Virus record (IMG/VR): IMGVR_UViG_3300044952_000182
Location: 1,578-65,577 of that record
DNA length: 64,000 nucleotides
Reading direction: 5' to 3' (one strand)
Source: a virus
Shown: positions 1-45,195 of the stretch, in pieces
Position numbering within the stretch: the first letter of the stretch is position 1
Layout of the letters: each line of letters starts with the position of its first letter
Notes under the pieces: model-generated
What the model was told of the DNA's origin: nothing
What the model saw: only the letters and a program-made list of their open reading frames with translations
The model's database searches: none
Translations under genes and position numbers: made by a program

Positions 1-1475
1 TCTTTTACAAAGAAGTCTACATCAAACATCATTCCATTGGTTTGAATTCCTTTTCCTTGAGATGTATTAACTATACCTAAATAAGCTTTCTTGTCTGTAT
101 TAAAGGATTCATTAATAACACCTAAGTCTTTCTCATTTACAACTACATCATATGTGTTATAGAATGCACGTTTGTATCCTAGATCTTGAGCAGCTTTGAA
201 TCCATTATATAAGTTAGTAAGTACAGTGAGAGACTGATTACTATATTTCAATCCATTGATATTCACCTCAGCATAATAGTCATCTGTATGTCTATAGAAT
301 CTGCTGTAATAAGAATGATGTGTTAATGGATTATGTGCATCGTACACATAGTGATCCACCATACGTTGTATCTCCTCGTCCACAGGATAGTGACTGATTA
401 ACATGATGTTTCTACCTAAGGCTTTCATAGAGTTGATAGTATCCTTAGTTAATTGTGCACGAGATTTTAAATTAGGATAGGTGCCTATGATGATAAGTTC
501 TTCATCTTTCTTATCAAGGTTTAATTTTTTGATGATATTAGTAGCATCACTACCAATATCTCCAGTTAAATAAACCATATTCTCTGCATCATTATACTTG
601 TTACAATATACATCTAGGTTGTACATTACTTTGATCAAGTCATCATATTCCATAGCTTCTTTAATAGCAATAGGATTTAACTCCTTGTTACCTCTGTCTC
701 CTTTAGATGGGAAGAAGAATACATCAGAAGCTTCTAAGAACATGTCTACATCATCTCGCTCACCCCACACAACACAGTTGTCTGGTTTGTTAGCCATCAA
801 GGGCTTCCAATATGATTCAAAGTTACCAGCTTGGTTACCTAGGAAATGAAACTTAACCTTGTAGTTCTTAAGTCTTTCTGCTAGTTGGAATGCATAAGCT
901 TGATTCTTTCTAGGTGTAAACAACCCTACAGTTACAAAGTGTTTATAGTCATGCTCTAATCCTAACTTTTCTCTTATAGCATACTGGTTTCTTTCTTTCT
1001 TGTTTACAGGATACTCAATCACTTCTGTAGGTACATTTAATGTAATGTATTGAAATGAATTATATGAGCTAACAAATATAAACTTGTCAGGCAAATAGTA
1101 TTTGTTTTTAGGATTGAATGAACTATCATGTGTAGTTTCTACAATCTTCCATGGCTTCTCTGCATCGTATAGATAGTCAGCACATTCTTCATTCATAAAC
1201 ATCTCTGGAAACTCTTCCATAGAGATTACATCTGGTTTGAACTCTTGCAGAACTTGCAACAGTTCATCATATTTATTCTCTCCTAGTGAATGGAAGTTCT
1301 GATCTCCCACTAGTTTAATTATTCTATTTCTTTGCACAACAAACTGCCATGCTAGGAATGCATACTCTACCACCTTGATATCAAAGTCATTCTGTAGTAG
1401 TTCTACTTTGTTTACTGTTACCTGGGGTGCTCCTCCTGTTGATAGATGAGGAGTGATGATTAATAGTTTCTTCAT
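1..1475 (-). CDS. glycosyltransferase, GT-B fold (GT4/GT1-like); C-terminus beyond window edge
   Basis: Minus-strand frame is open from ATG at 1475-1473 to the window edge, so it is absent from the ORF track. N-terminus MKKLLIITPHLSTGGAPQV matches the Gly-rich N-terminal motif of GT-B glycosyltransferases. ATGA start/stop overlap with the upstream GT9 gene. Confidence 0.5.
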   Translation of the reverse strand, partial: MKKLLIITPHLSTGGAPQVTVNKVELLQNDFDIKVVEYAFLAWQFVVQRNRIIKLVGDQNFHSLGENKYDELLQVLQEFKPDVISMEEFPEMFMNEECADYLYDAEKPWKIVETTHDSSFNPKNKYYLPDKFIFVSSYNSFQYITLNVPTEVIEYPVNKKERNQYAIREKLGLEHDYKHFVTVGLFTPRKNQAYAFQLAERLKNYKVKFHFLGNQAGNFESYWKPLMANKPDNCVVWGERDDVDMFLEASDVFFFPSKGDRGNKELNPIAIKEAMEYDDLIKVMYNLDVYCNKYNDAENMVYLTGDIGSDATNIIKKLNLDKKDEELIIIGTYPNLKSRAQLTKDTINSMKALGRNIMLISHYPVDEEIQRMVDHYVYDAHNPLTHHSYYSRFYRHTDDYYAEVNINGLKYSNQSLTVLTNLYNGFKAAQDLGYKRAFYNTYDVVVNEKDLGVINESFNTDKKAYLGIVNTSQGKGIQTNGMMFDVDFFVK

Positions 1476-9558: not shown

Positions 9559-9831
9559 ATGGCAGAGATTATCAATTTCGAAGACGTTGCTAACCAAGCA
9601 TCTCAAGGTCCTAAGTTTGATCCAAAAAAGAAGTACACATGGTCTCCAGAGACAGTGTTTACAATTAATGGTCATGAATTTGGACTGTTATTGAACACAT
9701 TACGTTCTATTACAAGCACAAAGGAAGCACAGACTATTATCCTAGCACATGAAGCTGGTGATGCTCTTGAAAAGACATTATCAAGTGCAGTTGAAACAGG
9801 TATAGTGGTTGAACTTCCAGAAAACAAATAA
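9559..9831 (+). CDS. hypothetical protein
   Basis: MAEIINFEDV...; compact operon context. Confidence 0.45.
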   Translation: MAEIINFEDVANQASQGPKFDPKKKYTWSPETVFTINGHEFGLLLNTLRSITSTKEAQTIILAHEAGDALEKTLSSAVETGIVVELPENK

Positions 9832-9835
9832 GATT

Positions 9836-10201
9836 ATGGCAACAATTAAAAAAGCTCAATCTGGTATTACAAAAAGAGGAATGGCAGGTATGAAAAAACT
9901 TCCTTCTCTTAATCCTAAAATGGTTCCAGGTGAAATGACTGGTAAAATGTACAAGAAGTCTGAACTTGATGAGATTGGTAGAAAACAAGCTGCAGAATTA
10001 GATAAAGTTTCTATGCTTGGTAAAGCTGCTATGGCTAAGAAGAAGGCTCCTAAAGCTAAGAATGGTATGTTAAAGCGTGCTGATGGTTCATATTCTAAAA
10101 GAGGATTATGGGATAATATCAGGAATGCTAAAGGATCTGGAAAGAAGCCTACAGCTGCCATGTTAAAACAAGAGAAGAAAATTAAAGCTAAAACAAAATA
10201 A
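9836..10201 (+). CDS. lysine-rich basic protein, paralog family member 1
   Basis: Track ORF 9809 trimmed to MATIKKAQSG at 9836. Extremely K/A/G-rich. Shares KKAQ(S/D)G and KAKNG motifs with 11164..11532. Confidence 0.55.
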   Translation: MATIKKAQSGITKRGMAGMKKLPSLNPKMVPGEMTGKMYKKSELDEIGRKQAAELDKVSMLGKAAMAKKKAPKAKNGMLKRADGSYSKRGLWDNIRNAKGSGKKPTAAMLKQEKKIKAKTK

Positions 10202-10203
10202 TA

Positions 10204-10548
10204 ATGGCAAAGATTAAAAAATCTGGTATGGGTAGCATGTCAGGCTTAGATGCTTCTGATAAGCGTGTAGGTCCTATTGACCCACAAGGTGCTTGGACTA
10301 AAGTTCAAGAGGCTACTTTAGCAGGTGCTAGAATGAAAGCTACTTTAAAGAGAGATAAAGAACTAGGTGCTACTAAGATGGCAAAGAATGGACGTTCTGA
10401 AATGCAATTTGGTCTTAACAAGAAACAAAAAGCATCAAAAGAAGTTAATCCAGCAGGTTTTAGAAAAGCAGCATTAAAGCGTGAATCTGAACTAGTTGAG
10501 AAGCGTAGTGGTGAAATGGCTCCTAAGTTGAAATCTAAAAAGAAGTAA
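10204..10548 (+). CDS. lysine-rich basic protein, paralog family member 2
   Basis: MAKIKKSGMG...; K-rich low-complexity small protein; 2-nt gap to the previous gene. Confidence 0.55.
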   Translation: MAKIKKSGMGSMSGLDASDKRVGPIDPQGAWTKVQEATLAGARMKATLKRDKELGATKMAKNGRSEMQFGLNKKQKASKEVNPAGFRKAALKRESELVEKRSGEMAPKLKSKKK

Positions 10549-11738: not shown

Positions 11739-11848
11739 CTGTCTTCTCCTGCATCCCTCGCTCTGCACGCTCAGGTTGTGGTAACTCAGTCTAGAATGAG
11801 CCCCTTAAAGAAGAATTTTCCCCCCTATAGTCTCAGTATTATAGGTCT

Positions 11849-11882
11849 AAAAAAGCCTCCCTTAAAAAAGGAGGCTTTTTTT
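11849..11882. terminator. bidirectional rho-independent terminator
   Basis: AAAAAGCCTCC-cttaaaaaa-GGAGGC-TTTTTTT: a 6-bp GC stem with an A-run upstream and a T-run downstream. Lies between the convergent plus-strand K-rich operon and the minus-strand gene 11881..12417. Confidence 0.6.
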
Positions 11883-12417
11883 ATGATACTAATGAATTGT
11901 ATACAGATAGTATCTTGTTTATGTAATGTTTATTCTTTGCTTTTTTATAACAGTTCTCAGCAAATACACCATCAGCATCTCTCCTTGATAGAACAAATCT
12001 TTCTTGATTCACTATAGATGTATGTACAATGAAGTTATGGCTATCTACATAGCTTAACTTAATTATGTTTCCATACAATCTATGTACACCACTGTTCCAC
12101 AGTTGATCAAATGATATAAAATCATTGTTTAAGTCTTTGATATTGTCCCACAACTCTGGATGCATAGTTGTATCATCATCGTTGAAATATATCCAACCCT
12201 CTGTTACTAGATTAATTGCTAGGTTTCTTTGTGCATTTCCACATACGCTTTTTACATCCTTTATACAATAAGCTTCACATTCAGGAATATCAGTTGGAAT
12301 AGTCTCTGAATCAAACACAACAATCCATCTGTAATTTTCTTTAGGTATGTTAATGCTTTCTGCAATTCTATGTAAAAAATGAGGTCTACTACAAGGAGTG
12401 ATAATATTTAAGAACAT
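11881..12417 (-). CDS. glycosyltransferase-like protein (GT-A-type, DDD motif)
   Basis: MFLNIITPCSRPHFL...WIYFNDDDTTMHPELW resembles the N-terminal beta strand and DxD region of GT-A fold transferases. Confidence 0.4.
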   Translation of the reverse strand: MFLNIITPCSRPHFLHRIAESINIPKENYRWIVVFDSETIPTDIPECEAYCIKDVKSVCGNAQRNLAINLVTEGWIYFNDDDTTMHPELWDNIKDLNNDFISFDQLWNSGVHRLYGNIIKLSYVDSHNFIVHTSIVNQERFVLSRRDADGVFAENCYKKAKNKHYINKILSVYNSLVS

Positions 12418-43567: not shown

Positions 43568-43909
43568 TTATTTTAATTCAAGAGGAATACCAGGATATCT
43601 ATGTATGTCCCAATATTCTGAGCCATCATATTCATGTCTATCCATCCAAATATCATTTGTGAACCATACTGTACCAAACAGCTGTTGACTACCATAACCT
43701 GAATCATAGTCAAAGTCAAGACTATTTAAGAACTCTGCAAGTTCAACAGGTGTATAACTCAGTTTGAGAATATGTGGCTTTGGTTTATAATCTTCATCAT
43801 TCCAATAACCATATGGTTCATGAGTAATAGTAGCACATCGTATTTGTGTACCATCTAACCATCTAGTAATTTGTTCTATTTTACCTAATAACTCTTCTTT
43901 AGCGTTCAT
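43568..43909 (-). CDS. hypothetical protein
   Basis: 113-aa ORF; a candidate terminator hairpin GCCTTTGGCACGCTAAAGGC lies downstream at 43522-43541. Confidence 0.45.
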   Translation of the reverse strand: MNAKEELLGKIEQITRWLDGTQIRCATITHEPYGYWNDEDYKPKPHILKLSYTPVELAEFLNSLDFDYDSGYGSQQLFGTVWFTNDIWMDRHEYDGSEYWDIHRYPGIPLELK

Positions 43910-44509
43910 AACTAATTGATTTTAAAGCGAATATATAGCCTAATGTTGCCTCAGCTTATATATTCTAATGTATTCATATGCAACAAATAATGTATTAGCA
44001 TAGGTTCTCAACTAATACTTGTAGCGTTTTCATCCACTATTATAATACTCTTGTACTCAATGTACGTATGACATATCTTTTTGTCAGAGCATTATATTCG
44101 TAGCTACATTAACAATAATAGATATAGTTACCACGTAGGATTAAATGTATTGTTATGCAAGGATTTCATAGCCCTTGAACCACTTTTGTGTCATAACCAT
44201 TATAATCTATCTACTGTAACCCTTATGTGTGACTCGCAACACATAAGCTATGAACTTCATCTATTAGAAATAATAACAAGGCATAGTCCACTTAAGGTAG
44301 GTATGAGCTGAATTGTTTTCCTTGTTATTATATAAAATCCCTCTGTACTCAGATGTAATGCTGAAAGGAACAACCTTTCTCTATTGCAATGTCTCTGTTA
44401 ATTGTTATAAACCTTTATGATTAGTGAGTACCATATCGAGTTTAACATACTGCATTACATAAATTGTATTACATCTGTCTATCCTTGGGAAATAGAAATA
44501 CAGAGGTTG

Positions 44510-44667
44510 TAGTGAGGACAGGATTTGAACCTGTATGTTATACCAAATGGTTAGGGTTATATTGCTTTCTTGCGTCCAAGAAATAATGTAGTAGTTCCCA
44601 TCTACGCCTCACCCTCTGTGTTTGATAGTATAACTCCATTAGCGTCTACCAATTCCGCCACCTCACT
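44510..44667 (-). tRNA. tRNA-like gene (type-II Leu-like D-arm) with a ~80-nt insertion between the anticodon-stem halves
   Basis: Minus strand: acceptor AGTGAGG…CCTCACT (perfect 7 bp) plus discriminator A; D-arm TGGCGGAATTGGTAGACGC identical to bacterial tRNA-Leu; T-arm ACAGG-TTCAAAT-CCTGT. Candidate anticodon stem AATGG…CCATT is separated by ~84 nt that contains its own hairpins. Confidence 0.4.
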
Positions 44668-45195
44668 ATATTGGGAAATAGAAATGGTACATTAAAACAT
44701 AAGACTATTCCATCTATGTGTAATATCTCCAATGGTAAATCTTATATATCCATTGTATGATGTAAATATCTTACCCAAATCCTTGTGTTCTCCTTGTACA
44801 TATCCATTATCTAATAGGTATGCAATCTTTTGTTCTGTTGTCATATAAATATGATTTAATTAATTAATAATGTGTCTCATAGTCAATAATATCATCCCAA
44901 TCAAGACCAGAAGTCTCAATCATCTTATCAGTAGGATAACTATCAAACACCCTAGTGCTAATAGATCCATCTTTCATAAAGAATATCGTATTGTACATAT
45001 AAATGCTATTTAATGCTATATATATTGTATTGTATAGCGTGAATTAATAATGTGTCAATAAGTGGTAATAAGTGGGAATGGAGTACACACCACCTCTCAC
45101 ATTCATGCAGAATGTGTTGAGTTTCAGTGAGTTATATAATTATTCCCACCCAGATGTGTTGCTAACACCCACCCTTATATACGAATAAGGGAAAA

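Follow-up and report, generated by a model that had tools for sequence, protein, structure and literature searches.

We have studied a window of 64,000 nucleotides (nt) of viral DNA, positions 1,578 to 65,577 of the IMG/VR record IMGVR_UViG_3300044952_000182. Our subject is an element of 158 nt which resembles a transfer RNA (tRNA) and is found on the minus strand, at 44510-44667. The window has a G+C content of about 34% and contains genes for rIIA/rIIB, ribonucleotide reductase, DNA polymerase, terminase, portal and major head proteins. It shows no DNA-level match to deposited phages. Cellulophaga, Flavobacterium, Bacteroides and crAss-like phages have the terminases closest to that of the window, so that the host of this phage probably belongs to the Bacteroidota.

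The element is on the same strand as the small open reading frames (ORFs) which surround it. It begins 24 nt after an ORF of 50 amino acids, and about 600 nt without any ORF separate it from the next gene. No sigma-70 promoter or intrinsic terminator above chance level is found beside it, in a scan which does not cover Bacteroidota promoters. Its order is AGUGAGG-UG-GCGGAAUUGGUAGACGC-[107 nt]-ACAGGUUCAAAUCCUGU-CCUCACU-A. In the list below, the tRNA-like parts are called the chassis and the 107-nt middle is called the cargo:

44510-44667, minus strand: the whole element, 158 nt, a putative tRNA-Leu-derived RNA gene (chassis plus cargo); Rfam tRNA match with an 85-nt insert, near-identical copies elsewhere
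44661-44667, minus strand: acceptor stem, 5' strand AGUGAGG; pairs perfectly with 44511-44517
44642-44658, minus strand: Leu-type D-arm GCGGAAUUGGUAGACGC (DNA GCGGAATTGGTAGACGC), with A14, A15, G18G19 and A20a; identical to the family consensus
44535-44641, minus strand: cargo domain, 107 nt, in place of the anticodon and variable arms; from the predicted fold
44588-44605, minus strand: hairpin GUAG-A-UGG-GAA-CUA-CUAC; present in single-sequence and consensus folds, its top pair broken by a substitution in locus L001
44566-44583, minus strand: hairpin UUUCUUG-GACG-CAAGAAA; one compensatory U-A to C-G change among relatives
44518-44534, minus strand: T-arm ACAGG-UUCAAAU-CCUGU, with U48 just before it at 44535; conserved in the family
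44510-44517, minus strand: acceptor stem, 3' strand CCUCACU (44511-44517), and discriminator base A73 (44510), which is conserved in the family

A previous sequence-only reading of this DNA had proposed a tRNA-like gene with an insertion, and had suggested a comparison with the covariance models of Rfam. The element passes this comparison: it matches the tRNA model RF00005 with 36.7 bits, the gathering score being 29 (E=4.6e-4, whole window against all families). The match is full length (model positions 1-71), and 85 nt stand where the 7-nt anticodon loop belongs. Even with E<=10 the window gives no second tRNA-like match, and at this threshold no known ribozyme, intron or small RNA family besides tRNA is found by Rfam at 44300-44900. 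ARAGORN in its default mode calls no tRNA in the window.

Most details of that reading are borne out. AGTGAGG (44667-44661) pairs with CCTCACT (44517-44511) in a perfect 7-bp acceptor stem, and the canonical T-arm ACAGG-TTCAAAT-CCTGT is present at 44534-44518. The D-arm, which had been described as that of tRNA-Leu, does not differ from the one found in canonical tRNA-Leu genes of IMG/VR, and is 88-90% identical to annotated phage tRNA-Leu genes over about 30 nt. The two halves were said to be about 85 nt too far apart, which is the length skipped in the RF00005 alignment. Both hairpins noticed in the extra segment are part of the minimum-free-energy fold of the element, which is better than that of shuffled sequence (z=-2.6). 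Its suggestion of a tRNA-derived RNA also holds, in the form of a tRNA-derived non-coding RNA.

The window copy contains U8, A14, G18G19, U54U55C56 and A58, together with the acceptor, D and T stems. It lacks a canonical anticodon arm, that is, a 5-bp stem with a 7-nt loop including U33, an anticodon and a purine at 37, in a total of 70-95 nt. The sole anticodon loop which can be drawn requires an A-A mismatch and the removal of an intron. No Leu anticodon (NAG or YAA) is found in a loop context, and the 11 nt before the T-stem, UGGUAUAACAU, do not form a class-II variable hairpin.

A family with conserved ends and different middles

A first scan of IMG/VR, for a D-arm and a T-arm with a long gap between them, gave the near-identical copies L001 and L009. 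It also gave further contigs with matching ends and wholly different middles. A second scan, anchored on 22 nt of the 5' end alone, gave at least 119 loci, which are split in two groups: ordinary tRNA-Leu genes, 80-86 nt long and with normal anticodon loops, and the AGTCAGG family. The ends of this family are nearly invariant, AGTCAGG-UG-GCGGAAUUGGUAGACGC ... ACAGGUUCGAAUCCUGU-CCUGACU-A, with about 26 nt at the 5' end, about 25 nt at the 3' end, and a middle of about 30-150 nt. At least 159 distinct elements were collected from IMG/VR. By similarity, the cargo middles of 197 elements fall into about 163 clusters.

In many short members the place of the anticodon loop is taken by a tetraloop hairpin or by some other loop which is not canonical. 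A few members use the chassis as genuine tRNAs. For example, L027 contains at 1217-1287 (minus-strand coordinates) a bona fide tRNA-Lys(UUU), with 66 bits, whose AGUCAGG acceptor stem and T-arm are those of the family; therefore, the chassis is common to real tRNAs and cargo units in at least one phage. The elements are found within phage tRNA arrays, up to ten or more per contig. Their scores with the tRNA model are 31-46 bits, while genuine tRNAs in related loci reach 47-77 bits. An Rfam scan of 13 related loci gives nothing beyond tRNA and one transfer-messenger RNA (tmRNA). A tmRNA (77.5 bits in Rfam, tag peptide ADEYAYAA) adjoins the tRNA array of L009, the viral contig with the copy closest to the element of the window, at 2333-2709. 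In L051 (minus strand, about 9650-10460) the same spacer of about 30 nt, GATGTAAAAGTTATTTGAAATAATAAAYAT, precedes each of three tRNA-like units in a row, and may be a dedicated promoter for those units in that phage.

The family is phage-borne. In a search of about 185,000 species genomes, the exact 3' half gives matches in 14 contigs, all of them from metagenome-assembled genomes (MAGs), several of these assigned to Bacteroidota bins, and in none of the isolate genomes; a host tRNA origin has been rejected on these grounds. No deposited phage holds both halves: only D-arm or T-arm fragments of ordinary tRNAs match. Full-text literature searches gave no published description of the family. The text of a 2023 survey of viral structured RNAs names tRNA-like candidates in generic terms. 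This is apparently a large, undescribed family of phage RNA genes.

Conservation profiles were obtained for the 159 distinct elements and, separately, for the 144 long members. In the family U8 is found in 100% of the elements, U48 in 89-91%, A73 in 87-91%, and the T-arm positions in 83-100%. In the long members A14A15 is present in 93%, G18G19 in 88%, U54U55C56 in 97% and A58 in 99%; the D-arm positions A14, A15, G18G19 and A20a are kept in 74-93%. Leu identity in E. coli depends on A73, A15-U48, G18G19, A20a, U8:A14 and the D/T-loop pairs, and tRNA-Leu variants without anticodon and variable arms are still charged (PMC9976931). This whole set, which is read by leucyl-tRNA synthetase (LeuRS), is complete in the window copy, and its members are kept at 74-100% in the family. 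To judge from these profiles, the family retains the LeuRS determinants and varies the parts which LeuRS can do without.

The stems covary. Changes on both sides are found in 12 of the 15 pairs of the acceptor, D and T stems, and 98.7% of the stem cells are paired, a level which none of 500 shuffles attains; compensatory changes affect 4 of the 5 T-stem pairs. The scan anchored on the 5' end alone still gave a matching, covarying 3' acceptor strand in 117 of 131 hits, among the matches listed.

The bases which flank the elements are those found at genuine tRNA genes of the same loci. U at -1 is present in 86% of the family and 73% of the genuine tRNAs, C at +1 in 96% and 94%, and A at +3 in 73% and 74%; CAA is the commonest trailer in both. 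The window copy follows this pattern, AATAT|AGUGAGG ... CACUA|CAA. The shared flank bases support maturation by the ordinary tRNA pathway, as far as this can be judged from sequence.

The cargo of the window copy is not unique. The same 107-nt middle is found, with at least 96% identity, in eight elements: the window and L001, L009, L142 and L144-L147, where the element copies are 96-99% identical to that of the window. These eight copies occupy at least five unrelated flanking contexts. Similarity to the window begins and ends within 2-3 nt of the element, and the flanks are dissimilar at both the DNA and the protein level. A disrupted tRNA, another suggestion of the sequence-only reading, does not agree with a middle conserved in this way. 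In the acceptor stem the window has G4:C69, while the seven other copies have C4:G69: the double change is unique to the window. Apart from this and from the compensatory change in the UUUCUUG/CAAGAAA hairpin, the eight copies differ by a G-C pair turned into G-U, by two loop substitutions and by one broken terminal pair.

The predicted cargo fold has a closing helix, an inner AGGGU/ACCCU helix and the two hairpins. There are two alternatives for the closing helix, GUUAUACUA/UGGUAUAAC (-41.5 kcal/mol) and the tRNA-style AAUGG/CCAUU (-34.7 kcal/mol), and both keep the inner helix and the hairpins. The folding z of this cargo subfamily is near -3. Two possible roles of the cargo have been rejected. 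An antisense or guide role finds no support in base pairing: elsewhere in the window the longest complementary stretch has 12 nt, and shuffled inserts typically give 11-13 nt. The insert may also be read in one frame from ATG to TAA, with 33 codons, MELYYQTQRVRRRWELLHYFLDARKQYNPNHLV (44535-44641, minus strand), but an encoded peptide is contradicted by a premature stop in L145 and by an ORF coverage of 0.143 in the family, against 0.133 in shuffles. This frame is probably due to chance.

The loci L044 and L104 have both flanks in common up to the conserved ends. Between the ends, a single unit with one cargo is found in L044, and two units, with two cargos different from it and a spacer of 160 nt, in L104. 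Recombination at the invariant ends would be expected to give this pattern. Within 120 nt downstream of 60 of 111 members there is an ORF of 40 amino acids or more, whose start codon is typically 15-21 nt away. These ORFs form 52 clusters among 60, so that a dedicated partner gene has been rejected. Their Pfam matches are unrelated (NinG, SPL, terminase, DNA ligase, DnaA_C), and no transposase is found among them.

Insertion at an intergenic motif

An exact direct repeat of 15 bp brackets the element of the window; its minus-strand sequence is ATTTCTATTTCCCAA, and its two copies occupy 44685-44671 and 44499-44485. The upstream repeat is 3 nt from the element and the downstream repeat 10 nt. 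The sequence-only reading had correctly described them as exact, while its values of 14 bp and 5-10 nt for length and distance have to be changed. Within the window, the 14-mer has no further match with two or fewer mismatches, and matches with three mismatches are at chance level (18 found, 13.9 expected). The features of this region are as follows:

44671-44685, minus strand: upstream copy of the 15-bp duplication ATTTCTATTTCCCAA, the truncated left half of the motif
44500-44670, minus strand: inserted unit of 171 bp, TAT + element + CAACCTCTGT; missing from L157 and L158
44470-44499, minus strand: full intergenic motif ATTTCTATTTCCCAAGGATAGACAGATGTA, whose first 15 bp are the downstream repeat; found in 25 IMG/VR contigs

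The motif TAATG[T/C]ACC-ATTTCTATTTCCCAAGGATAGACAGATGTA, about 40 nt long, is found once per site and uninterrupted in 25 IMG/VR contigs (L148-L172). Its flanks vary on both sides in these contigs, so that it forms a mosaic boundary. In two of them, L157 and L158, the kilobases on either side of the site have 92-97% identity to the window, the end of the upstream ORF being exactly shared, and the element is missing; L149 and L169 have the downstream flank of the window. Compared with these empty-site contigs, the window has 171 extra bases between the two copies of the duplicated 15-mer. The motif includes an imperfect palindrome, TCTAT(TT)CC-CAA-GGATAGA, with the insertion junction at its centre. 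The window copy is a recent insertion of 171 bp, with a 15-bp duplication, at the centre of the motif.

Two interpretations of the repeats had been considered from the sequence alone. An insertion footprint agrees with the empty sites of L157 and L158 and the single motif of the 25 contigs. Processing or termination signals do not: the motif is single, uninterrupted and free of the element in relatives, and no terminator-like site has been found. An uninterrupted tRNA, which related phages might have shown here, is not present in L157 and L158, whose site is empty.

Another insertion is found at the same place. L173, which is up to 97% identical to the window, has about 590 bp inserted at CCCA|AGG, within 1 nt of the left junction of the window. 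The protein encoded at L173:2897-3463 matches GIY-YIG (E=3e-10) and NUMOD3, with a weaker match to NUMOD1 below the cut-off, and its gene is by these domains a predicted free-standing homing endonuclease gene. The motif is a hotspot for mobile DNA and mosaic recombination, because the endonuclease gene of L173 occupies the same point as the element of the window and the flanks are mosaic. The motif might act as a promoter, be bound by a protein or be cut by a nuclease. It starts with the stop codon of the preceding gene, whichever this is, and a TATAAT-like hexamer often follows it. One possibility for the origin of the 15-bp duplication is break repair with template switching.

Among about 113 copies with scorable flanks, repeats of at least 15 nt flank only the window copy and that of L051. 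The repeats of L051 are the conserved spacer which precedes each of its three tandem units, so flanking repeats have been rejected as a general feature of the family.

Function of the element and alternative explanations

We consider that the element is probably a stand-alone phage small-RNA gene, made of the top half of a tRNA-Leu and a cargo domain, which is not spliced and whose cargo has a specific trans-acting function. The acceptor stem, D-arm, T-arm and tertiary core would be kept from tRNA-Leu, and the cargo would replace the anticodon and variable arms. Such a gene would be transcribed together with the surrounding operon. The RNA would mature in the same way as a tRNA: RNase P would cut after U-1, the 3' end would be trimmed at A73-C74, and CCA would be completed. 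The product would be a stable L-shaped RNA. Leucylation of the chassis may be possible, because all known E. coli LeuRS determinants are kept and only dispensable parts vary. The chassis would then provide processing, stability and possibly charging, and the cargo would provide the specific function in trans. The conserved ends may serve as homology arms for swapping cargos and neighbouring DNA between phages. In the window, the insertion probably followed a break at the hotspot motif.

Several points weigh against this proposal. All its functional steps rest on inference from sequence. The Leu determinants could be just inherited from an ancestral tRNA-Leu; they are also needed by RNase P, RNase Z and the CCA-adding enzyme, and do not specifically imply leucylation. 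The value of 98.7% of stem cells paired across the family is inflated by our parser, which demanded complementarity of the acceptor and T stems. The fold of the cargo found here rests on very few substitutions and has two possible closing helices. Family middles are only moderately structured (mean z -1.2, 19% below -2) and few have a simple closing helix (25 of 124), therefore some cargos may be filler. Decayed copies exist, such as L064 with an internal deletion of 63 nt. Finally, a GIY-YIG cut, with its 2-nt overhang, would not directly yield a duplication of 15 bp.

A more ambitious proposal, which we make only tentatively, is that freshwater and marine Bacteroidota phages carry a natural library of anticodon-less scaffolds, chargeable by LeuRS, with hundreds of structured cargos, matured by the host and shuffled by recombination. 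The cargos of such a library could be protein sponges, aptamers or decoys against tRNA-targeting defences, and an aminoacylated 3' end could add to their function.

Four other explanations should be considered. The elements might be only cis-acting punctuation, where RNase P and RNase Z cut polycistronic transcripts and release downstream mRNAs with short A-rich leaders, the middle being unconstrained filler. The ORFs which follow 60 of 111 members, typically starting 15-21 nt downstream, would fit this role, as would the lack of relation among downstream genes, the flank bases typical of genuine tRNA genes and the weak average structure of the middles. Nevertheless, the element of the window is not followed by an ORF, since the next gene is about 600 nt away. 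A 107-nt middle which is at least 96% conserved across contexts, with a compensatory change, is unlike filler, and the Leu-specific A73, A15-U48 and A20a are not required for punctuation. We regard this explanation as unlikely.

The elements could also be non-functional relics, decaying tRNA-Leu pseudogenes multiplied by duplication and recombination, whose ends would appear conserved as a result of gene conversion and of end-anchored searches. All our searches are indeed anchored on conserved ends, an ascertainment bias, although an anchor at the 5' end only still recovers covarying 3' acceptor strands. Decay is seen in L064, members with diverged D-arms occur in arrays, and the tRNA-model scores of the family are below those of genuine tRNAs. 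Such decay does not account for the compensatory changes in 12 of 15 stem pairs, nor for the double change from C4:G69 to G4:C69 in the window, which keeps the pairing. It is also difficult to reconcile with the conservation of one cargo in at least five contexts with dissimilar flanks, and with the arrival of the element as a precise unit in a phage with no other tRNA gene in 64 kb. A relic is, in our opinion, quite unlikely.

A selfish tRNA-derived DNA element, similar to a miniature inverted-repeat transposable element (MITE) or a short interspersed nuclear element (SINE), would have its ends recognised by a transposase, a nuclease or retro-element machinery, and its RNA shape would be incidental. 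Transfer as a discrete unit agrees with this, as the similarity to L001 and L009 is bounded within 2-3 nt of the element. So do the 15-bp target duplication with verified empty sites, the multiple copies per genome and the acceptor-stem ends, which form a terminal inverted repeat of 7 bp. However, the window copy is the only one of about 113 tested with a genuine flanking duplication, and the downstream genes are heterogeneous, with no associated transposase or reverse transcriptase. Furthermore, the stems covary instead of having a fixed sequence, and the conserved U8, A14, G18G19, U48 and U54-A58 matter only for a folded RNA. This makes a selfish element improbable.

The remaining alternative is a tRNA-Ile(UAU) gene with a 76-nt intron at the canonical position 37/38. 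Splicing by an unknown phage or host activity would yield an 82-nt class-II-like tRNA reading AUA, a codon likely to be common in a genome with about 34% G+C. This is what ARAGORN calls when introns are allowed, a check which the sequence-only reading had proposed: the loop is G-U-UAU-A|A, with U33 and A37 present. By eye, the junction consists of a helix, a 3-nt bulge and a 4-bp helix (GUUA/UAAC, UAC bulge), loosely a bulge-helix-bulge, and the tRNA-Lys(UUU) of L027 shows that a genuine tRNA may have the same acceptor stem and T-arm. The call has no evidential value, because 80% of the controls with shuffled middles (481 of 605) are also called, against 84% of the real members (102 of 121). 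The anticodons assigned by ARAGORN are scattered, and include unnatural anticodons with A34 as well as Stop, selenocysteine (SeC) and pyrrolysine (Pyl). The anticodon stem proposed for the window copy contains an A-A mismatch as well as G32, and the alternative fold is more stable by about 7 kcal/mol; the D-arm and A73 are of Leu type. Middles are unrelated across members (about 160 unrelated middles in the family), and many have no possible anticodon loop. A tRNA-splicing endonuclease is not known in bacteria.

The element does resemble the tRNA-Leu(UAA) genes which bear a group I intron, since it has extra sequence in the anticodon-loop region of a Leu-type tRNA gene. The group I introns of bacterial tRNA genes have 184-894 bp (PMC13011429), well above the 76-85 nt of this insert, which had already been judged too short for such an intron. 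Unlike them, the insert shows no group I core and is hypervariable across the family, its flanking 'exons' rebuild no credible anticodon loop, and no group I or group II intron or ribozyme family matches at E<=10. The unusual intron contemplated in the sequence-only reading is thus hardly credible.

Known systems and other features of the region

None of the closest known systems is the same family. The probable ancestor of the elements is tRNA-Leu (class II, RF00005), with which they share a 7-bp acceptor stem, A73, the D-arm GCGGAAUUGGUAGACGC, U8, A14, A15-U48, G18G19 and the T-arm. The element of the window differs in having a multi-hairpin domain of 107 nt instead of a canonical anticodon stem-loop, and in its length, 158 nt against 80-87 nt, so that default ARAGORN rejects it. 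The topology is also that of tmRNA (SsrA), where the ends form an acceptor/T-arm module, an internal domain replaces the anticodon arm, and charging is carried out by a synthetase which ignores the anticodon. A tmRNA identity has been rejected: Rfam gives no tmRNA match in the window, position 3-70 is U-A and not the alanine identity pair G3-U70, and the 33-codon ORF is not conserved. The element is also shorter (about 160 nt against about 350 nt) and keeps a full Leu-type D-arm, which tmRNA does not have. The family has no conserved tag ORF, and the coding signal in its middles is at chance level.

Phage T4 has two small stable RNAs, C and D, whose function is unknown, in a tRNA cluster beside the GIY-YIG gene segB (PMC3014915, PMC9697503). 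T4 rnaC ends, as the element does, in a canonical T-arm with an acceptor-like helix. However, its match to tRNA-Sec (17.5 bits) is below any tRNA-model threshold and it lacks a Leu-type D-arm; there are only two such RNAs in T4, in contrast to a hypervariable, multi-copy family. Homology to rnaC or rnaD has been rejected, as there is no sequence similarity beyond the T-arm in rnaC.

The closest architecture is artificial. In the engineered tRNA scaffold, an RNA of interest replaces the anticodon arm for recombinant expression (PMC3753655). The arrangement is identical, with acceptor, D and T arms around a foreign structured RNA, which tRNA enzymes process and stabilise. The scaffold is a laboratory design, whereas the elements are natural and have more than 150 cargo types; that they obey the same principle is what we infer. 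If the RNA is expressed as we propose, phages would have evolved the tRNA-scaffold design of RNA engineers and diversified it into well over 100 cargo types. A natural, highly diversified family of this kind would be unexpected. It would amount to a ready catalogue of small structured RNAs which are likely to play a part in infection, would test in nature which tRNA parts processing and LeuRS recognition need, and would offer a possible handle on the small stable RNAs of phage tRNA clusters, such as RNAC and RNAD of T4.

The locus may also be compared with homing hotspots. A free-standing homing endonuclease, SegB, is found in the tRNA region of T4 (PMC2330249). The motif described here is similarly an intergenic site with a GIY-YIG gene in L173 and mosaic flanks elsewhere, which fits break-induced recombination. 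In the window, however, the insert is an RNA gene without endonuclease, within a 15-bp duplication which homing does not normally make. This is an example, controlled by empty sites, of the capture of an RNA gene where a sister phage has a homing endonuclease gene, and a concrete case of non-coding genes moving between phages. As regards annotation, such elements are missed by ARAGORN in its default mode and mislabelled as intron-bearing tRNAs in its intron mode.

A few other features of the window should be mentioned. The ORF-free stretch downstream of the element (43910-44485, minus strand) folds better than shuffles (z=-2.8). Its core of 283 nt (43989-44271) is 99% identical in L173, compared with 86-97% for the coding DNA around the stretch. 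It may have a regulatory role or specify a conserved non-coding RNA. The stretch is followed by an ORF of 113 amino acids (43568-43909, minus strand), with no Pfam match, whose counterpart in T5-like phages of Escherichia and Salmonella, with about 73% DNA similarity, bears the annotation 'hypothetical'. No other part of the neighbourhood has such similarity at the DNA level. Far from the element, at 11807-11924, Rfam matches below threshold cluster on both strands (STnc230, STnc370, Phe and Thr leaders), which suggests a strong hairpin or a terminator-like structure near a change of sign in GC skew.

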